Sequence record: MT129652.1
Reading direction: 5' to 3' (one strand)
DNA from: Escherichia phage MN01
Length of the DNA: 64,000 nt
Positions 14,623 through 23,740 of the stretch are shown one piece after another. A program made the position numbers and the translations under genes. The notes beneath the pieces are model-generated. The model had not been told where the DNA came from. It saw only the letters and a list, made by a program, of their open reading frames with translations, and made no database searches. Each line of letters begins with the position of its first letter. Position 1 is the stretch's first letter.

Positions 14623-17457
14623 ATGGCACAAACTATACGTCTTATTTCGGCTAATGTATCACCTGCCCCAGAAAAATACATATTGAACAAGATGTACAAC
14701 TGCGAGATTTCTTTAGAATTTGTATCACAAATAGACAAAATGGCGTTTTATAATAATAATATAGTAGACGCGGATGGAAACAAACTTACTACCGGTGGTA
14801 TAAATCTTACACCACGAGAACCTAATTCGCCATTTAAAATTAGTGGTATCTCATTTATAGTATATAAAAAGAAAGATATGTCTTATTTTATAGAATTCCG
14901 AGATATCGACGGAACTATACATAAAGTACCTCTTGTTAATATTACTGCAGACCAAATAGAAGATGGAAACTCGACACCAAAAATATTGACCTGTGCTAAT
15001 AATTCTTCAGGTGAAGAGTATCTTTATACTTTAAGTCCATACAGAATGGATGCGGGCGCTTTTAACAATATGTTTGTTATAGATTCGGTAGATTTCTTTG
15101 AATATTCTAATAAAGAAACACCGTTTCACACTGAACTTTTACCAAGTGTAGGTACTTCCTACATAATACCTAAAACCGATAGAAGGACTGCGGTATATGC
15201 TGTAGTTAATATATCTGACCGTGACACAGGTAAAAAACTTATAAATTCATTTTATTCGTTTTCGGAAATCCACCCAAATAAAACAGGGCCCACAACCCTT
15301 CTTTCAAGTCTCAAATATTTAGTTGATTCTACAGGCACAGAATTATCGATATTTCCTAAAATATCAGTCACACCACCTATTCCAAATTTAATTTTTAACC
15401 ACAATTTATACACACCTATACAAAGAGGAGTTTCTTTAGCCCCTAATAATAGATTAGACCAAACTATAAACATGTATATAGATGGTTCTACAACTGCTGC
15501 TGGAGCTGTAGTTGCGTCTGATAATGCTTCATTTCTTACTAGACCTGCTAGCACTAGCACTACAATATCAATGGCTAATCTAAAAAATGGGACCAAACTA
15601 TTTTTAAAAGATTATGACCAAAAGGTAATAAAAGAATTAGATTTTGTTGATACAGAATATATCATATTACCTATATCAAATCTTAAAGTAAAATCAATGA
15701 AACCTATGGATTTTACTAAGCCTGTTTGGGAATATGAATTTTCTCCTATATTACCCGGTATAAGTGAAACGGAACCTTATGTTGTCTTCGAAAGCTTTGT
15801 AAAAGAGACAATGAAAAAATTAGGTGACCGTTTTTATGCTAGTGATTTAAAAGGTGCTATAGTTCCTAATTCAGATTCCATAGATAATATGTTATCTAGT
15901 AATACTGCTGGTATAGAATATTATTGGCTGCATATATGGTATCCTAATTTAGGAAAAATGTACTTATTAAGAAACTCTAATGGAGATGGTCCTGGTGTAT
16001 ATCCTCTAATAAAAACGGGCAAAGAACAAGTAACCGTTTCTAAAACCGGTGAAGTTATCCATGGTAAAAATATAGAACTCGCTGCAACTGAATTTGGATT
16101 TTCAGAAATAAACGCAGGAAAACGCACATTCCAATGGTACAAGGACGGGGTTGAATTACCAGGCCAAACTACAAGGGCCCTTTTAATTACAAATTTAAAA
16201 GGCGAAGACAGCGGCGATTATAGTGTTAAAGTAACAGCTACACCTAGTCACTCGTACGCTGAAGATTCTATTATGGAATTTAGTTCTACTCCATTTAACA
16301 TCAATGTTGATACCACAAGGACCATAACAGCCGAATTGACGTGCACCCCAATGCCTATAGTAATGGGCCAGCCTTTTACTCTTTCTGGTAAAATAAGCGG
16401 TGGGTATGGAACTACTATAGAATATGTCAGGCTGATTAAAAACTCGGTAATCTTGGAAGACTATCCATTAGACTCTATGACAACTAGCACTGTTATCCCT
16501 AATGCAACTCTTACTTCAAGTGGAATTTATACTCTTGCCGTAAGTTATTTTGATAACGGAGTAAAACGTCTTGCTCTGTCTGAACCTGTTAAAGCATTTT
16601 TTGCTGATAGCAAACCATTAAATCTAACCTGTGTATTGGCAGGTCCTGATATGGCTAATGAGGGCGATGATGTTTTATTCAATGCAAATGTTGCGGTGAG
16701 TTCGGACGCCAGTTTGACACCTGTATATACAATGCATTGGTATAAAGACGATATACCGGTATCAGATTCATCTCCTGACAATTTGAGTCTAAGTATAACC
16801 AATGCTCATTATCCTGAAGATGAAGGGGTGTATTATTGTATAGTTTCGGCGCATGTTGAAGGATATGAACCTGCTACTATTGAGAGTAATAAAATTGATT
16901 TAACCATACTTACTGACATAAGATTGGTAGCAAGACTTTATTCCGACAACGCTATAATCAATAAAGGAGACACCACAATTATTAAAATAGGGTTCCAAGC
17001 AGATAGACCTGTTAACCCTACATGGAAATGGCACCACAAAGATGGTACTCTGTTACAAGAAAACGGAACCGAATTAATGGTTTCTCCAACATCAACTACT
17101 ACCTATTATGCTATTGCATATCCTGGGTACGGCGAAGGAATACAAAAACCTACAATGACTAATGAATTCACTATAGAAGTTATCGAGCCATCAGTAGACG
17201 CTGATTGTGATATCTACATTCATCCATTGATGCCTGGACGTCAAGGTGGCTTTTTATGGGTGGGGTGGTGGGTTATTGATGAAATCAACCAGGCTATAAA
17301 AGATGGATTTGATTGGAAAGCAGACCCTACTAATAGTAGATTTAAGTACCCGTGTACTATAAAGGCTATTGTTAGAGCCATGAATGACTTTGGGGGAGTT
17401 GAAGCTCAAGAATCCAGAAATGGATACATTCTTAAAGACGACTATTTCAACAGGTAA
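14623..17457 (+). CDS. second, large Hoc-like protein (944 aa) with Ig-like domains and Hoc-type C-terminal domain
   Basis: Ig I-set-like motifs (WYKDG...DSGDYSV, WYKDD...EGVYYC); C-terminal segment (W.GWWV.DEI....DWK.D...ESRNG) parallels the C-terminus of the upstream hoc-like gene. Confidence 0.7.
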   Translation: MAQTIRLISANVSPAPEKYILNKMYNCEISLEFVSQIDKMAFYNNNIVDADGNKLTTGGINLTPREPNSPFKISGISFIVYKKKDMSYFIEFRDIDGTIHKVPLVNITADQIEDGNSTPKILTCANNSSGEEYLYTLSPYRMDAGAFNNMFVIDSVDFFEYSNKETPFHTELLPSVGTSYIIPKTDRRTAVYAVVNISDRDTGKKLINSFYSFSEIHPNKTGPTTLLSSLKYLVDSTGTELSIFPKISVTPPIPNLIFNHNLYTPIQRGVSLAPNNRLDQTINMYIDGSTTAAGAVVASDNASFLTRPASTSTTISMANLKNGTKLFLKDYDQKVIKELDFVDTEYIILPISNLKVKSMKPMDFTKPVWEYEFSPILPGISETEPYVVFESFVKETMKKLGDRFYASDLKGAIVPNSDSIDNMLSSNTAGIEYYWLHIWYPNLGKMYLLRNSNGDGPGVYPLIKTGKEQVTVSKTGEVIHGKNIELAATEFGFSEINAGKRTFQWYKDGVELPGQTTRALLITNLKGEDSGDYSVKVTATPSHSYAEDSIMEFSSTPFNINVDTTRTITAELTCTPMPIVMGQPFTLSGKISGGYGTTIEYVRLIKNSVILEDYPLDSMTTSTVIPNATLTSSGIYTLAVSYFDNGVKRLALSEPVKAFFADSKPLNLTCVLAGPDMANEGDDVLFNANVAVSSDASLTPVYTMHWYKDDIPVSDSSPDNLSLSITNAHYPEDEGVYYCIVSAHVEGYEPATIESNKIDLTILTDIRLVARLYSDNAIINKGDTTIIKIGFQADRPVNPTWKWHHKDGTLLQENGTELMVSPTSTTTYYAIAYPGYGEGIQKPTMTNEFTIEVIEPSVDADCDIYIHPLMPGRQGGFLWVGWWVIDEINQAIKDGFDWKADPTNSRFKYPCTIKAIVRAMNDFGGVEAQESRNGYILKDDYFNR

Positions 17458-18148: not shown

Positions 18149-19156
18149 ATGTTCAAGAAATACAACAGCCTTGAAAATCACTATAACAACAAGTTCATTG
18201 AAAAGATTCGCCTGCAAGGCTTCACCAACGGTGAATGGGTAGCACGTGAAAAGATTCATGGCACCAACTTTTCATTAATCATTGAACAAAACAATGTGAC
18301 ATGTGCGAAACGCACTGGGCCTATCCTGCCTGCAGAAGATTTCTATGGTTATGAAATTGTACTAAAGAACTATGCTGATTCTATTAAATCTGTGCAGAAA
18401 CTTTTGCAGGATATCAATTACCAGGCGTATCAGATTTATGGTGAGTTTGCCGGGGCAGGTATCCAGAAGAATGTGGATTACGGTGATAAAGATTTTTATG
18501 TCTTTGATATCCGCGTTACTAAAGAAGATGGTTTTGAATCCGTCCTGACTGACACTTTGATGGAAGCTTTCTGTATTATCCATAAGTTTAAGGTTGCGCC
18601 GCGCCTAGCCACGGGTAGCTTTGAAGACTTGATTAAGCTCCCTAATGACCTGGATTCCGTTGTTCCTGATTACAATTTTACAGTGGATAATGCGGGTTTG
18701 ACTACAGCAAATACCACTGATTTTGACGCGAAGGTTGAAGGTAAAGTATTCACTGCTGAAGGATTTGTATTAAAACCTGATGTTCCTGCATGGTTACCCA
18801 ACGGCGAGCGTGTAGCTATTAAATGTAAGAACTCTAAATTCAGCGAAAAGAAAAAGTCTGATAAACCTATTAAGGCTGCTGTTGTGTTGTCCCAGGAAGA
18901 CCTGGATATTTTATGGAAGTTCACTGATTATGTGACTGTTAACCGTATTAATAATGTTATCAGTAAGATTGGTGAAGTAACACCTAAGGATTTTGGAAAG
19001 GTAATGGGGCTAACGGTCCAGGATATTCTGGAAGAAGCTGGTCGTGAAGGTCTTGAATTGTCCCTGACGGAAAATCCTGTTGAAGTTAAAAAGCAACTTA
19101 TTGTAAATGTAAGAGAAACATTAAGACATGTTTGGATTGCATTAATTAGTGAATAA
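18149..19156 (+). CDS. rnlB: RNA ligase 2 (RnlB)
   Basis: 335 aa (T4 Rnl2 334 aa); nucleotidyltransferase lysine motif KIHGTN; position next to gene 24. Confidence 0.85.
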
Positions 19157-19185
19157 AAAAGGGCCGCAAGGCCCTTATTCTTTTT
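19155..19185. terminator. bidirectional terminator between rnlB and gene 24
   Basis: GGGCCGCAAGGCCC hairpin with A-run upstream and T-run downstream. Confidence 0.65.
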
Positions 19186-20458
19186 CCAATGGCGGAAGTT
19201 TAACACCAAGATAAGAACTCAATTGGCTTTGGTTAGCCATCTTATCCATATCAGCACCGTCAATAATGCGAGCTTCTTTATCGTCTTTAGCAACGGTGTA
19301 AGGGTTCGCTGTCAATGCATAACGAGCTAACAGTGCAACCGTAGGCTGTAAGCTTTCAGGGTCAACAATAACCTTGAATTCCCCGACCGAGGTATCACCC
19401 TCATCATCAACTTCGCTAAGCCCTTCCGTATAAGGCGCATAATACAAAGATGCGACCGTCTGACCTTCACCCATATCAGCATTTACACCGACAATAACAT
19501 AATCACATGGACTATTCATATCAGCGTAAAGAGGTAAACCGTTCTTCAGAACGCCATAGGCCAATTCATCCTGGTCTTCCTTTTTCTCAACCCAGCCAGA
19601 AGCGGCTAAAATAGCTGCACAACGAGAAGAAGCGACTGCATATGTACCAGCAAATGAAGTCTGACGTTGAACTGCAGAATTCATTTCACACATATAATAA
19701 TACAGGGTTCGTGCGCGGTCCTGGGCGTTATCATATTTCAGGTCAGTAAGATTCAATACACCTTTTTCAGAAACACCTTGCACCTTGAAACGGGAACTGA
19801 CAGTAATAAGGGATTGCAGTACATCCTTATTAATTTCCTCTGCCATTTGAATACCGAGAATATTATCGATGAAATCCGTTGCATCGAAACCGTTTGCTTC
19901 CAGGTCTTGTGCAAGCTCGACAGTTAAAGAAGTTTTCAGTTTTCTGGATTTGACTTCGGTCTGCCATTTATCGATACGGAAACCAGCTTCAGCAATTTCA
20001 GGATGTCCTTTTTCAAATTTATCCGTGAAAGCCGCATCTGACATCATTCTTATATGACCAGCAGCAACGGCTTCAGAAATAACTTCACCCAAATCAGTTT
20101 CGAGAGTCCCGGCGAATGGTGATGCTTCCAGAACTTTGAACACAACACTTTCAAACTGGAACATATCGCCGACTGCATAAGCTTCGTCTTTGTTTGTAAA
20201 TTCTGGAATATTCTTACGCTCGAACATACCAATCTGACCTGCAAATGTTGCCCCGCCGAGATAAGTCATTTTATCATCTGGGTTCAGAACACGAACACCA
20301 TACAGCGCTGCAACAGGCTGGGTAGTTTTCTGTTCAGCCACGAGTGCTTTAAAAATTCGTTTATTCGTGGCTTGGGTATAAGAAAGCAAATTAGGACGGG
20401 CGACCTGGTTGGCCGCCGTTAATGTTGATTCGTGAATTAGTGCGTTAATCTTTTGCAT
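19175..20458 (-). CDS. 24: head vertex protein gp24 (copy A)
   Basis: 427 aa, same length as T4 gp24; gp23-like fold signature shared with the adjacent paralog. Confidence 0.8.
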   Translation of the reverse strand: MQKINALIHESTLTAANQVARPNLLSYTQATNKRIFKALVAEQKTTQPVAALYGVRVLNPDDKMTYLGGATFAGQIGMFERKNIPEFTNKDEAYAVGDMFQFESVVFKVLEASPFAGTLETDLGEVISEAVAAGHIRMMSDAAFTDKFEKGHPEIAEAGFRIDKWQTEVKSRKLKTSLTVELAQDLEANGFDATDFIDNILGIQMAEEINKDVLQSLITVSSRFKVQGVSEKGVLNLTDLKYDNAQDRARTLYYYMCEMNSAVQRQTSFAGTYAVASSRCAAILAASGWVEKKEDQDELAYGVLKNGLPLYADMNSPCDYVIVGVNADMGEGQTVASLYYAPYTEGLSEVDDEGDTSVGEFKVIVDPESLQPTVALLARYALTANPYTVAKDDKEARIIDGADMDKMANQSQLSSYLGVKLPPLEKE

Positions 20459-21739
20459 TTACGCCTCATAAATGATTGGCGGAAGTTTAACACCGAGCAG
20501 ATAAGACATATTGCTCTGACCGGCCATTAAATCCATATTGGTTGCATCGATAATACGAGCTTCTTTATCGTCTTTGGCAACGGTGTACGGGTTAGCTGAA
20601 AGTGCGTAACGAACCATCAGAGATATAGATGGCTGCAAGCTGTCTGGGTCCACAATGACCTTAAACGCGCCGACGTGCTCTTCATCATCCAAGTCCAGGC
20701 CTTCGGTATAAGGAGCATAGAAAATTGAGCCTACGACTTCGTTCCCGCCGTAATTTTCTTTAACACCAACGGTTACATAATCCAATGGACTGTTAACATC
20801 ACAGAATACAGGGAGGCCGTTAATCAAATAACCGTACGCTGTTTCGGGGAGCCATTGCTCATCTTCTGGTCTGTGTTTCAACCAACCAGAACCGGCCAAC
20901 ATAGCAGCAACACGGCTAGAGGCAACAACAAAGGTACCGGAATAAGATGTAGTTTTCTGAATTTCGGAGTTCATTTCGCAAACCAGTTCGTACAGTTTAC
21001 GTGCACCTTCCGGGGCTGCATCATATGTTAAATCGATGGTGCCATTGTCGGAAACGCCAGTTACTTTATAACGCTTGGAAACGGTAATAAGAGACTGAAG
21101 AACATCTTTGTTAATTTCATCTGCCATAATAGTGGCAAGCAGGTCTTCCAAGAAAGCAGGAGCGTTAAAACCATTTGCTTCCATATCCTGAGCAAGTTCA
21201 ACAGTTAATGCAGTTTTCAATTTACGTGTTTTAACCGGAGCATTCCATTTGTTAACCTGGAATACAGCATTGCTAATTTCAACATCACCAGCTTCGAATT
21301 TCTCGGTGTGTGCCGCATCAGGAACAAGGCGAATGGTCGATGCAATAAGACCTTCTTGCAGAACATCAGATAACACGGTTTCTGTGGTCGATGCAAATGG
21401 ATTATCAACCAGGGCTTTGTAAACGATATTTTGGTATTTTACATATTCGCCTTTAGCCACGGGCTGAGTGGCTGTAGCTAATTCTGGAATAGTTGTACGG
21501 TCTTTAGAACCGACTTCACCTCCATAAGTAGCGCCAGTCTGGAAACTGAATTCATTATCAGGAGTAAGATATTTAACACCGTACAGTGCAGCAACAGGCT
21601 GGGTAGTACGTTGTTCAGCGATGATATCGCGGTAAATCAATTTAGTCGTAGCGCGGGTCAAAGCAACAAGATTCGGGCGGCCCAAGGAGTTGCTGGTAGT
21701 AATAGTTGACTCGCGCAGTAATTTGTTAATCTTTGCCAT
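20459..21739 (-). CDS. 24: head vertex protein gp24 paralog (copy B)
   Basis: 426 aa; clearly alignable with copy A along its full length; stop abuts copy A start (TAAATG). Confidence 0.8.
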   Translation of the reverse strand: MAKINKLLRESTITTSNSLGRPNLVALTRATTKLIYRDIIAEQRTTQPVAALYGVKYLTPDNEFSFQTGATYGGEVGSKDRTTIPELATATQPVAKGEYVKYQNIVYKALVDNPFASTTETVLSDVLQEGLIASTIRLVPDAAHTEKFEAGDVEISNAVFQVNKWNAPVKTRKLKTALTVELAQDMEANGFNAPAFLEDLLATIMADEINKDVLQSLITVSKRYKVTGVSDNGTIDLTYDAAPEGARKLYELVCEMNSEIQKTTSYSGTFVVASSRVAAMLAGSGWLKHRPEDEQWLPETAYGYLINGLPVFCDVNSPLDYVTVGVKENYGGNEVVGSIFYAPYTEGLDLDDEEHVGAFKVIVDPDSLQPSISLMVRYALSANPYTVAKDDKEARIIDATNMDLMAGQSNMSYLLGVKLPPIIYEA

Positions 21740-21765
21740 TTGCGCTTTCCTTTTGTGATATACTT

Positions 21766-21773
21766 TATTTATA
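21766..21773 (-). promoter_or_regulatory. late promoter (TATAAATA on minus strand) for gene 24 copy B
   Basis: Plus-strand TATTTATA about 27 nt upstream of the start. Confidence 0.6.
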
Positions 21774-21779
21774 AAAGTT

Positions 21780-21826
21780 GTTTACAACCAGATTAAGATA
21801 AGACATAATGATTCCATACTGAGTTA
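21780..21826 (+). promoter_or_regulatory. early promoter plus conserved leader cassette
   Basis: GTTTAC -35, 18 nt spacer, CATAAT -10, then GATTCCATACTGAGTTA leader also found at 59998, 60885 and 61413. Confidence 0.6.
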
Positions 21827-21848
21827 ACAAACAAACCTGGAGTTTAAA

Positions 21849-22130
21849 ATGAACAAATCAACTTTCCTTCTGAACACCTTTAAAAAATTGGAAATTGAAG
21901 TTATTGCATTGGTCAACAAATACCCAAATGGTGTTAATGGTAATGCTCTGAACAAACTAGTTAAAAAATATGAAAACTTAGCATATGACACTGATTTCTG
22001 GTGGAATGGTAATTATTCTACTCACACTAAAGATAAAAATGGTAACTGGTTGAAACTTCAAGAAAACAATGTTAACTTCAGAGACCTCATCAAGCGCCGG
22101 GTAGAAGTTCATTTAAATGGTATGGTATGA
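21849..22130 (+). CDS. hypothetical early protein in the 23/24 intergenic slot
   Basis: 93 aa ORF with own promoter cassette and RBS; no recognisable nuclease motifs. Confidence 0.5.
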   Translation: MNKSTFLLNTFKKLEIEVIALVNKYPNGVNGNALNKLVKKYENLAYDTDFWWNGNYSTHTKDKNGNWLKLQENNVNFRDLIKRRVEVHLNGMV

Positions 22131-22137
22131 AAACAAG

Positions 22138-22166
22138 AAAGGGACCTCAAGGGTCCCTTTTTATTT
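22138..22166. terminator. bidirectional terminator
   Basis: GGGACC-TCAA-GGGTCCC hairpin with A-run and T-run. Confidence 0.65.
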
Positions 22167-22180
22167 AACTTAATCTAGGA

Positions 22181-23740
22181 TTAAATTCCTTTAACATATA
22201 CGCGACGGAAGTAACCGTTCAAGCCGAGGCTGTTAACGATATCCGGCATGCCGTTCTGAATGCGCTTGGTCGGAGCCTGAGCAGCAGGGTCAGCAAACGG
22301 GTTGATACCAATACCGTAACGGGTTTTGAAGCCCATAACCGGCTGGAAGTTTTTCGGGTCAGAGCCACGCAGCGGGGTCAGTGCAACATATGGTGCGTAG
22401 TAGATACCAGCATCCATTTCGTTAGCGCCTTTGTAACCGATGGTGAAGTAGTCTGCACGAGCATACTGGTCGATATAGACACGGTATTTGCCACCCAGAA
22501 CACCAGCGAATACAGCTTTAGTGGTGTCAACGTTGAAACCTTTACCCAGACCCTGAGCAGCATAACTTACAGAAGTATCAACAGCAGCCAGTACGTTAAC
22601 TACGTTACGGGAAGCGATGATGAAGTTACCTGCGCCACGACCGGTCTGACGAGCGATTTCAGCGGCTTCTTTATCAATCTGGAACAGTAAAGCTTTGAAG
22701 CTTTCACCAGCCCAACGAGCACCACGGATATCAATCGGGTCCTGGAAGTCAAACACACCAGCTTTAGCGCCAACGGTGTTGGTCATACCAGATTTACCAA
22801 CCTGTGCGGAGTAGTTAATCCAATCGATAACTTCGCGGTTGATTTCCAGCATAATTTCGGTAGCCAGAATACCACTCAATTCGGCATCAGCATCCATACC
22901 GTGAACAGCGCGGAGGTCCTGTGCCAGTTCGATAGAGTAGCTTGCTTTAAGCTGACGGGATTTAGCTTCGATAACTTGTTTGTCGATACGGAAGCCCATT
23001 TCGTTCCACGGGTTATCCTGGGAACCGTTAAAACCTTCTTGCAGTTCGGCGATGGAGGTAGCCATACCTTCAGCCAGTTCAGCCAGCTGACCAGCTTCCA
23101 ACAGAGCGGTAACAGCAGCATCCAGTTTAGCAGCATCGGTAGCAGCAGCATCAACAGTTACAGCTTCAACAGCCTGGAAGTGTGCGGAACCGGTTGCTTC
23201 GAAGAAGTGAGAATAAATTTTACCAACTTCCAGAACTTTACCTGCAGCCAGTGCTTCAAAAGTCTGAGCAGCGCCCTGACCAGAGAACATAGCGTTCGGA
23301 GCATACATCGGATGGAAAGCTTCTTTAGCACCAGCAGCGACAGGGTCTTTACCATAAACTGCACGCAGGGCAAATACCTGGCCAGTCGGGTTGTTCAGAG
23401 GCTGTACGCCACAAATATCAAACGCAATCAGATGCGGAATAGCACGACGAACCATACCCATAACTGCCGGCCCAATCTGAGTTACTGCACCAGAGGTCTG
23501 GCCAGCAGCGATATTGGTAGCATCATAACCATGGTCACCACCGATTTCAGCTTCGGTCAGGAAAGAACCAAATGCTTCGGAGATTTTTTCGTCACGGTAT
23601 TCAGGAGCGGTCAGAATATCTTGTTCCTGGTTTTCAAAGATTTTAGCGATGATAGCTTGTTTAGAAGCACCAACGATTTCAGGAAGAGCTTCGTTTTCCA
23701 ACAGAGCGGACCATTTTTGAACTAATGCATTCTTTTTCAT
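22181..23740 (-). CDS. 23: major capsid protein gp23
   Basis: 519 aa; near-identity to T4 gp23 over long stretches as recalled. Confidence 0.95.
   Translation of the reverse strand: MKKNALVQKWSALLENEALPEIVGASKQAIIAKIFENQEQDILTAPEYRDEKISEAFGSFLTEAEIGGDHGYDATNIAAGQTSGAVTQIGPAVMGMVRRAIPHLIAFDICGVQPLNNPTGQVFALRAVYGKDPVAAGAKEAFHPMYAPNAMFSGQGAAQTFEALAAGKVLEVGKIYSHFFEATGSAHFQAVEAVTVDAAATDAAKLDAAVTALLEAGQLAELAEGMATSIAELQEGFNGSQDNPWNEMGFRIDKQVIEAKSRQLKASYSIELAQDLRAVHGMDADAELSGILATEIMLEINREVIDWINYSAQVGKSGMTNTVGAKAGVFDFQDPIDIRGARWAGESFKALLFQIDKEAAEIARQTGRGAGNFIIASRNVVNVLAAVDTSVSYAAQGLGKGFNVDTTKAVFAGVLGGKYRVYIDQYARADYFTIGYKGANEMDAGIYYAPYVALTPLRGSDPKNFQPVMGFKTRYGIGINPFADPAAQAPTKRIQNGMPDIVNSLGLNGYFRRVYVKGI

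Follow-up and report, generated by a model that had tools for sequence, protein, structure and literature searches.

The window under study, i.e., a 64,000-nucleotide stretch of Escherichia phage MN01 (MT129652.1), belongs to a Gaprivervirus with Escherichia phage EAWsc9 as its best DNA match (97%), and carries two adjacent minus-strand open reading frames (ORFs) for proteins of the gp24 type. Gene 24 copy 1 (20459..21739, 426 aa) is the orthologue of VR7 24(1), JS98 24a, and T4 gp24, while gene 24 copy 2 (19175..20458, 427 aa) is that of VR7 24(2), JS98 24b, S16 gp109, and "capsid vertex protein II." The two proteins align over their full length by BLASTP, with 237 identities in 428 positions (55%), 75% positives, and an E value of 6e-174. 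An initial annotation had described the ORFs as adjacent, alignable paralogues of 427 and 426 aa; their spans proved exact, and the consensus string it gave agrees with our alignment. The tight packing of stop against start that it reported is likewise borne out by the junction, which reads ...tat gag gcg TAA ATG caa..., placing the copy 2 ATG directly after the copy 1 TAA. No internal stops were found in either copy.

Both proteins had also been said to resemble gp24, which is correct. Each matches the Gp23-family domain PF07068 (5.9e-98 for copy 1; 1.3e-97 for copy 2) and PHROG 138 (1e-130 and 7e-123, respectively). Among PDB sequences, T4 gp24 (1YUE) is matched over residues 1-424 with E values of 2e-192 (copy 1) and 8.8e-149 (copy 2), the latter at 55% identity, whereas gp23 is matched by both at only about 1e-11 and over residues 156-393 only. 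That one copy might instead be a different gp23-family protein, a possibility raised at the outset, is ruled out by these scores and by alignment with the gp23-like ORF of the window (22181..23740), to which either copy is 28-29% identical in the C-terminal part only (about 250-284 aligned residues). Assignment to the gp24 branch was based on greater closeness to gp24 than to gp23 and on a length of about 427 aa without the 65-residue propeptide, as seen in both copies. Both ORFs are thus gp24-type and full-length, not gp23-type, and since they are 55-69% identical to 1YUE over its full length, the gp24 fold of both is beyond doubt. The copies are alike in length, pI (4.6-4.75), and overall constraint pattern, and no systematic difference emerged from comparison of their pI, charge, and Cys/Trp counts.

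Transcription and translation signals of the gene 24 pair

The gene pair lies directly downstream of gene 23 (22181..23740), from which it is separated by a bidirectional terminator hairpin (22138..22160) that follows gene 23 and would delimit the gene 24 transcription unit on its upstream side. Upstream of copy 1 is a T4-type late promoter box, TATAAATA (21766..21773, minus strand), with its function assigned from the T4 late-promoter consensus. The same box occupies the same place in VR7, JS98, S16, Entb_45, PWKp16, and Cronus, and is also present upstream of T4 gene 24. As TATAAATA occurs only once in the interval 19100..22200, both strands included, no internal late promoter for copy 2 was found there; nor was a convincing terminator found between copy 1 and copy 2. 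Copy 2 thus appears to have no promoter of its own and to be read from the copy 1 transcript.

For translation, copy 1 has a putative Shine-Dalgarno sequence, AGGA (21748..21751, minus strand), 8 nt before its ATG, in a "aaggaaagcgca" context that is kept in other two-copy phages. The candidate Shine-Dalgarno sequence of copy 2, GAGG (20464..20467, minus strand), is embedded in the final codons of copy 1, 5 nt ahead of the copy 2 ATG, and GAG(G) occurs at the equivalent junction position in all seven of the two-copy genomes compared. In these seven, the stop and start codons abut, overlap by 1 or 4 nt, or lie 1 nt apart. Translation of copy 2 is thereby predicted to be coupled to that of copy 1, and because the two are evidently co-transcribed as well, the proteins are probably made in similar amounts.

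Downstream, a second bidirectional terminator hairpin (19159..19176; AAGGGCC-loop-GGCCCTT, T-runs on each strand) extends into the stop codon of copy 2. It lies 3 nt past the stop of rnlB (18149..19156; Pfam RNA_ligase and T4_Rnl2_C), which is convergent with the gene 24 pair, and would end both the 24(1)-24(2) operon and rnlB. Judged by these signals, the locus has the form of one late transcription unit composed of TATAAATA, copy 1, an abutting copy 2 with its embedded Shine-Dalgarno sequence, and a terminator.

Distribution and ancestry of the two copies

The gene pair is already known, is annotated in more than 100 related phage genomes, and is ordinary for the clade; the initial annotation had left it open whether other T4-like phages were already described as having such a pair, and its annotation in JS98, VR7, and S16 shows that they were. 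Of 50,697 phage records, 116 contain a copy-2-type gene; these are distributed over six genera (Gaprivervirus, Dhakavirus, Gelderlandvirus, Kanagawavirus, Marfavirus, and Roskildevirus), and about 118 phage records show two places for a gp24-type protein. T4 has one such place, as had been stated correctly, and a single gene 24 is found in Mosigvirus, Moonvirus, Karamvirus, and Jiaodavirus as well. The copy 2 protein of the window is 99.5% identical to those of TH41 and EAWsc9, 84% to that of Gelderlandvirus (computed on CF-SP2), 80% to that of Marfavirus, and 66% to that of Cronus. Gene 23, copy 1, and copy 2 follow in this order at every locus inspected, with copy 1 directly upstream of copy 2 at 17 of 17 copy-2 loci from IMG/VR. 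Copy 2 without copy 1 was not seen among the 116 phage records or the 17 IMG/VR loci. The JS98 genome papers and the capsid-evolution paper of Comeau & Krisch reportedly mention the g24 duplication. A full-text literature search returned nothing on what the second copy does or on whether virions contain it, a search for virion proteomics of a two-copy phage returned no report, and the PDB sequence set holds no structure from such a phage.

The alignment and phylogeny proposed in the initial annotation were carried out on this single protein by distance and parsimony methods (15 replicates for parsimony). Copy 1 grouped with T4-type gp24 with 91-98% neighbor-joining bootstrap and 93% parsimony support, copy 2 formed its own clade (100% bootstrap), and copy 1 and copy 2 as sisters received 0% support. 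Copy 1 of the five genera without Roskildevirus formed a 100% clade; together with Cronus copy 1 and T4-type gp24 it makes up the copy-1 lineage supported at 91-98%. Nesting of the T4 group inside copy 1 received only 73-91% support, and placement of JD18 and Acj133 relative to copy 2 only 21-62%. Site patterns (44 : 17 : 10) also favoured copy 1 with the T4 group. Pairwise, the nearer relative of copy 1 is T4 gp24 (69%), not its neighbour copy 2 (56%); the identity of copy 2 to T4 gp24 is likewise 56%, and Jiaodavirus gp24 is equidistant from both copies (64-65%). The idea of a tandem duplication of gene 24 thus stands insofar as the genes are tandem gp24 paralogues, but not as a simple and recent in-place duplication of a T4-type gene.

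A long-branch artefact was considered for the position of copy 2 and rejected, with gamma distances (alpha 2, 1, and 0.5), parsimony, and outgroup distances all keeping copy 1 with T4. Identity to the outgroups is 53/49/44/45% for copy 2 versus 55/50/49/46% for T4, a difference so small that long-branch attraction is unlikely. The gp23 tree was too poorly resolved to act as a species-tree proxy. Branching order is largely alike in the copy 1 and copy 2 subtrees, with Cronus first in both, and the pair was passed down as one unit through at least six genera.

Between the two copies, synonymous substitutions have reached saturation (pS 0.66-0.72; 0.66 in the window), and the longest DNA word common to the two window copies is 20 nt. 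Gene conversion or concerted evolution was sought and rejected, with third-position identity of 0.2-0.69 across 40-codon windows and longest shared words of 14-34 nt. A mild rise in similarity between copies is confined to the very conserved C-terminus. The pair does not stem from a recent duplication, and copy 2 represents a separate, deep gp24 lineage. Because copy 1 groups with T4 gp24 while copy 2 forms its own clade, the single gene 24 of T4 probably reflects secondary loss. The same gene tree, with no loss in T4, would also result had the cassette moved between genera or had copy 2 been acquired long ago from a T4-like lineage that has not been sampled. Taken together, it is quite likely that the locus is the two-gene form already known for the vertex module of the T4 family, as an old, retained pair of which T4 has lost one member.

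Selection on the copies and their possible roles

Purifying selection is strong and roughly equal on both copies, with dN/dS of 0.013-0.053 for copy 1 and 0.010-0.030 for copy 2, and mean cross-genus identities of 0.754 and 0.768, respectively. Disabling changes in one copy, another possibility that had been raised, were looked for and none were found; a pseudogene or decaying copy is ruled out by the absence of internal stops and by dN/dS of 0.01-0.05 in both. Both N-termini (MAKINKLLRE↓S in copy 1; MQKINALIHE↓S in copy 2) carry the motif of the gp21 prohead protease, L/I-x-E↓S, which is present in both copies and all orthologues across the six genera. In T4, this motif stands at the start of mature gp24*, i.e., 5VF3 chain a aligns from query residue 11, and the start of the mature chain coincides with the motif position (PMC9958956).

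Between the copy 1 and copy 2 lineages, 52 positions are fixed differently. They are concentrated in the N-arm region (T4 residues 24-59) and in two further stretches, residues 237-293 and 324-351, with small indels of copy 2 relative to copy 1 near T4 residues 239, 299, and 355. Conservation is highest in two core blocks, T4 residues 170-194 and 364-409, where the copies share 77-86% identity. The N-arms of T4 gp24 touch neighbouring subunits (PMC9958956).

We propose that both proteins would be made late, in comparable amounts, from one mRNA, that the gp21 prohead protease would remove the first 10 residues of each, and that both would then enter the head as pentameric capsomers at its vertices. 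The event that gave rise to copy 2, whether duplication or acquisition, would be older than the split from the group of T4, Mosigvirus, Moonvirus, and Karamvirus, which would subsequently have lost copy 2; the single gene 24 of T4 would thus be the derived state. The mechanism we would prefer is a division of labour, in which the copies form separate homopentamers for non-equivalent vertex classes of the prolate head, i.e., one at the apical vertex and the other in the two five-membered rings of shoulder vertices. Sub-functionalised vertices of this kind would fit the strong purifying selection on both copies. The most far-reaching version, namely that the two paralogues make chemically different vertices within one prolate head (apical versus ten shoulder vertices, or a six-five split between caps), that this state is ancestral for enterobacterial T4-like phages, and that T4 was simplified by loss, is put forward as speculation with a rather low chance of being correct.

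Redundancy of the copies is possible, if doubtful: either one would fill any of the 11 vertices, in mixed homopentamers or in heteropentamers, and (with the same degree of doubt) the pair might persist because it buffers assembly across temperatures, hosts, and chaperone backgrounds or adjusts gp24 supply. Several two-copy phages (the VR series) are low-temperature phages, which would fit such buffering. Interchangeability would also agree with the likeness of the copies in length, pI, and constraint pattern, with their co-transcription, coupling, and probably similar amounts, and with T4, which copes with one gp24 and, in bypass-24 mutants, even with none (PMC9958956), so that the filling of vertices may be a tolerant process. 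However, pure redundancy rarely lasts this long. The copies are 55-57% identical to each other in every genome compared, with the 52 lineage-fixed differences and no gene conversion, and between Gaprivervirus and Dhakavirus, conservation is if anything higher for copy 2 than for copy 1 (dN 0.035 versus 0.070). This persistent divergence, together with the conservation of copy 2, points to distinct, individually selected roles.

A separate matter is whether copy 2 arose in place. Under a rather unlikely alternative, it would be a xenologue, i.e., a gp24 allele from a distant T4-like phage recombined beside the resident gene 24, with neither an in-place duplication nor a loss in T4. T4-like phages undergo mosaic recombination, copy 2 branches outside the clade of copy 1 and T4-type gp24 without rate acceleration, and the equal distance of Jiaodavirus gp24 from both copies would likewise suit such an origin. 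However, no donor lineage is visible, and copy 2 was not seen alone in the phage records or IMG/VR loci surveyed. Moreover, Cronus comes first in both subtrees, which dates the event to the deepest split among the two-copy genera or earlier; at that depth, duplication with loss and acquisition are indistinguishable.

Very unlikely, in our estimation, is a copy 2 that has become a gp24-derived assembly or regulatory factor instead of a stable vertex component; equally improbable are the roles conceivable for it, such as timing gp21 activation, acting transiently in shell closure, or serving as a decoy for capsid-sensing host defences. The attraction of this alternative is that the gp21 protease of T4 is believed to be activated when gp24 attaches to the vertices of the prohead (PMC9958956), for which reason a gp24-like protein could serve in regulation. 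Against it, copy 2 retains the entire gp24 sequence (1YUE residues 1-424 at 55%), the cleavage motif, and both core blocks, whereas much of this constraint should have been relaxed in a protein without a structural role. Finally, a duplication that is recent and specific to the window phage, or an assembly artefact, has practically no chance of being correct, as the tandem abutting arrangement is the one feature in its favour, against 55% protein identity, pS of 0.66, a longest shared word of 20 nt, and the presence of the same pair in independently sequenced genomes from six genera.

As a discovery, the pair is minor, since it has been publicly annotated from the JS98 and VR7 genomes onward and is routine in six genera. 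Its interest lies in the more than 100 phages, including therapy candidates and Salmonella phage S16, that keep two distinct vertex proteins under strong selection, while T4, the structural model of the family, has one vertex gene and has probably lost the other. Were the division of labour to be true, with the copies occupying different vertices, it would be an unequivocal tailed-phage example of capsomers specific to their position and would bear on how caps are defined in prolate heads.

Comparison with annotated pairs, T4 gp24, and gp23

The pair has been named in several genomes. It is 24a/24b in JS98 (EF469154), to which window copy 1 and copy 2 are 89% and 95% identical, respectively; 24(1)/24(2) in vB_EcoM-VR7 (HM563683; 97% and 98%); gp108/gp109 in Salmonella phage S16 (HQ331142; 83.8% for copy 2 by tblastn); and "capsid vertex protein I/II" in VR5, VR20, VR25, VR26, CJ20, and CGG4-1. 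All have the same order and orientation as in the window, with gene 23 directly upstream and rnlB convergent, and the layout of promoter, junction, and terminator is the same. There is no substantive difference between these loci and that of the window, which represents a further Gaprivervirus isolate.

With T4 gp24 (1YUE, 5VF3, 7VS5), the proteins of the window have in common their family, length, 10-residue propeptide motif, late promoter context, and place after gene 23. The difference is one of number and divergence: T4 has a single gene 24 and the window has two, of which copy 1 is the T4 gp24 orthologue (69%), whereas copy 2 is 56% identical to T4 gp24 and separated from copy 1 by the lineage-fixed differences. 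In T4, one gp24 fills all 11 vertices and no precedent exists for a position-specific vertex; mutants of the bypass-24 type manage without the protein altogether (PMC9958956), and their heat and pH stability has been scored (PMC10580926).

Ultimately, the pair recalls an older event in the same family. According to reviews, gp24 is itself a derivative of gp23 (PMC9958956), and the gp24 pair would constitute a second round of the same process, in which a capsid gene of the HK97 fold was duplicated and then diverged. In the first round, gp23 and gp24 came to be about 20-29% identical, with hexamer and pentamer roles, respectively; in the second, the two gp24 copies, as compared here by sequence alone, are 55% identical.

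Two gp24-type genes in tandem

The window carries two neighbouring minus-strand ORFs, an upstream one (copy 1; 20459..21739, 426 aa) and a downstream one (copy 2; 19175..20458, 427 aa), at whose junction (...gcg TAA ATG caa...) the stop codon of copy 1 immediately adjoins the start codon of copy 2. ORF listing and junction thus bear out the initial annotation, which had read here a packed tandem duplication of the head vertex gene 24. Aligned over their full length, the copies are 55% identical and 75% similar (E 6e-174), and both match PF07068 (Gp23/gp24 capsid family; ~1e-97, Pfam) and PHROG 138. Against all PDB sequences, T4 gp24 (1YUE, 5VF3, 7VS5) is matched over residues 1-424 by copy 1 at 2e-192 and by copy 2 at 8.8e-149, versus a match of both to the major capsid protein gp23 of just ~1e-11, limited to the C-terminal core; the window's own gp23-type ORF (gene 23; 22181..23740) is 28-29% identical to either copy. 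All the features that define gp24 at the sequence level are present in each copy. As judged from sequence, both are true gp24-type paralogues and not gp23-type, so that the possibility raised initially of one copy being a disguised gp23-family protein falls away, as does that of disabling changes, none of which occur in either sequence. That T4 has a single gp24-type gene was also correct.

Distribution, descent and constraint of the pair

Searching 50,697 phage records with copy 2 (tblastn) matched 1,535 places in 1,417 records, and therefore about 118 records contain two gp24-type genes; among strong matches only, a copy-2-type gene occurs in 116 records at 65-99.5% identity. In the representative loci inspected, the order gene 23, copy 1, copy 2 is common to six genera, i.e., Gaprivervirus (the window, EAWsc9, VR7), Dhakavirus (JS98), Gelderlandvirus (S16, CF-SP2), Marfavirus (PWKp16), Kanagawavirus (Entb_45), and Roskildevirus (Erwinia phage Cronus). 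A lone gene 24 is found in T4, Mosigvirus AV110, Moonvirus CF1, Karamvirus Entb_43, Jiaodavirus JD18, Acinetobacter phage 133, Krischvirus Phi1, a Bragavirus, and a Biquartavirus. In IMG/VR, a copy-1-type gene lies directly upstream in 17/17 copy-2-type loci, four of them on metagenome-derived contigs; copy 2 without copy 1 was seen neither there nor among the inspected phage loci.

Copy 1 and copy 2 of any one two-copy genome share 55-57% identity, with synonymous sites saturated (pS 0.66-0.72). Among the first four genera compared, identity between orthologues is 73-97% for copy 1 and 78-99% for copy 2 (to Cronus, 64% and 66%, respectively); T4 gp24 is 69% identical to copy 1 versus 56% to copy 2. 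Trees of this one protein (neighbour-joining, 500 bootstraps; parsimony bootstrap, 15 replicates) recover by neighbour-joining a copy-2 clade at 100% and a grouping of copy 1 with the T4, Mosigvirus, Moonvirus, and Karamvirus genes (the T4 group) at 97-98%, with 0% for the two copies as sisters. The grouping of copy 1 with the T4 group holds with gamma-corrected distances (91-98%) and in the small parsimony bootstrap (93%), and is favoured by informative site patterns (44 : 17 : 10); the T4 group is nested within the copy 1 lineage at 85-91% by neighbour-joining and 73% by parsimony. In each of the two subtrees (copy 1 and copy 2), Cronus splits off first. A long-branch artefact in the position of copy 2 is unlikely, because identity to the outgroups is nearly as high for copy 2 (53/49/44/45%) as for T4 gp24 (55/50/49/46%).

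Read most simply, these sequences would go back to one old event that took place no later than the deepest split among the two-copy genera; the pair would then have been inherited together, with copy 2 later lost in the lineage to T4, which probably owes its single gene 24 to secondary loss. A foreign allele may instead have been acquired long ago, or the cassette passed between genera, and at this depth either would leave an identical gene tree; the gp23 tree has too little resolution to stand in for a species tree. Placement of JD18 and phage 133 relative to copy 2 receives only 21-62% support. The single gp24 of Klebsiella phage JD18 (locus L005, 2501..3781) is as far from copy 1 (64%) as from copy 2 (65%), and might be a lineage older than the duplication or the one copy that survived, be it copy 1 or copy 2.

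Where dS was not saturated, dN/dS (Nei-Gojobori; window versus EAWsc9, VR7, and JS98) ranges over 0.013-0.053 in copy 1 and 0.010-0.030 in copy 2. In comparisons of Gaprivervirus with Dhakavirus, copy 2 has changed less (dN 0.035, versus 0.070 for copy 1); mean pairwise identity across the six genera reaches 0.754 among copy 1 sequences and 0.768 among those of copy 2. Conservation profiles along the proteins are alike, with a variable stretch at T4 residues 73-146 in both; constraint is tighter at residues 122-146 and the C-terminus in copy 2, and at residues 1-22 and 342-363 in copy 1. The lineages differ by three small indels and 52 positions fixed differently, densest at T4 residues 24-59, 237-293, and 324-351, and a search for gene conversion between the copies gave no sign of it.

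Expression signals and neighbouring genes

The only T4 late-promoter box within 19100..22200, TATAAATA (21766-21773, minus strand), lies upstream of copy 1, with AGGA after it, 8 nt ahead of the copy 1 ATG. Copy 2 lacks a separate promoter, and GAGG sits 5 nt before its ATG within the last codons of copy 1. Two hairpins, each flanked by T-runs on either strand, are likely bidirectional terminators: one, at 19159-19176, overlaps the copy 2 stop codon and ends both the gene 24 pair and the convergent rnlB, and the other, at 22138-22160, lies after gene 23; no convincing terminator separates copy 1 from copy 2. This layout (a single promoter, a stop that adjoins the start or overlaps it by 1-4 nt, GAG(G) upstream) recurs in 7/7 two-copy genomes examined, and co-transcription is well supported at the sequence level. 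In T4, gp21 protease trims 10 residues from the gp24 N-terminus (PMC9958956), and the mature chain in 5VF3 begins at residue 11 (PDB alignment); an L/I-x-E|S motif at residues 8-11 (LLRE|S in copy 1, LIHE|S in copy 2) is kept by every orthologue. We infer that both copies would be translationally coupled, cleaved, and incorporated into the head.

Both hairpins are perfect and sit between convergent genes, copy 2/rnlB and gene 23/a 93-aa plus-strand ORF (21849..22130) lying between genes 23 and 24. The latter ORF is kept in VR7 (ORF190c) and JS98 (ORF173c), with a small ORF in Mosigvirus AV110 likened to it by position alone; it has no Pfam match, and the 'glycosyl hydrolase family 25' label of its EAWsc9 homologue finds no support in the Pfam scan. 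In Citrobacter phage CF1 (locus L009, 4356..5356), rnlB beside gene 24 is annotated as two 'RNA ligase 2' CDSs (267 and 717 nt), which points to a frameshift, a sequencing error, or a split gene. A 944-aa plus-strand ORF (14623..17457) immediately downstream of the Hoc-like gene carries immunoglobulin-like domains around aa 689-762 (Pfam Ig_2, Ig_3, I-set, V-set), and its C-terminal half is ~27% identical to T4-type Hoc. Its DNA matched no phage record (megablast), and its only full-length protein match (65% identity) is in Salmonella phage vB_SnwM_CGG4-1 (two records, same genome), annotated 'Hoc-like head decoration'. EAWsc9, the closest relative, lacks an ORF of this kind here and VR7 has a collagen-repeat ORF in its place; the position resembles a hypervariable slot, which in the window would be occupied by a second, giant Hoc-like decoration protein.

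Proposed vertex roles and relation to known phages

In T4, each of the 11 non-portal vertices is occupied by a gp24* pentamer, attachment of gp24 is believed to set off the prohead protease, N-arms of both gp23* and gp24* touch neighbouring subunits after expansion, and gp23 subunits beside gp24 lack Soc (PMC9958956); gp23 mutations can bypass gp24 at a cost in stability (PMC10580926). In two-copy phages, both proteins are probably virion components. We tentatively lean towards separate homopentamers, which would be suited to vertices of non-equivalent class in the prolate head; distinct, conserved N-arm and core substitutions have been kept very long in both lineages. Interchangeable use of the copies, or assembly buffering, is about as likely as separate homopentamers, and a non-structural or regulatory role is improbable. 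That position-specific vertices were the ancestral state of enterobacterial T4-like phages is rather doubtful.

The 3.2-kb region matched 94 phage records (megablast), with at least 80% of the query covered by one place in 73; the best match is Escherichia phage EAWsc9 (97%; Gaprivervirus, Tevenvirinae). The pair is annotated '24a' and '24b' (gp24 head vertex protein) in JS98, '24(1)' and '24(2)' in vB_EcoM-VR7, 'capsid vertex protein I/II' in VR5, VR20, VR25, VR26, and CJ20, and 'head vertex protein I/II' in Salmonella phage CGG4-1, and corresponds to gp108 and gp109 of Salmonella phage S16. The initial annotation had left undecided whether the duplication was described for other T4-like phages; it is, at least in public annotation. 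The paralogy stands, and the pair is old, widespread, and already annotated rather than peculiar to MN01. The g24 duplication is reportedly mentioned in the JS98 genome papers and the Comeau & Krisch capsid paper; our search of a full-text library turned up no account of what the second copy does. By sequence, the locus belongs to the known 24a/24b (vertex protein I/II) module. To that module our analysis adds modestly the count and taxonomic spread of copy-2-type genes, the steady linkage of both copies in every examined locus, equal purifying selection on them, a conserved bicistronic late operon, and the probable secondary loss behind the single gene 24 of T4.
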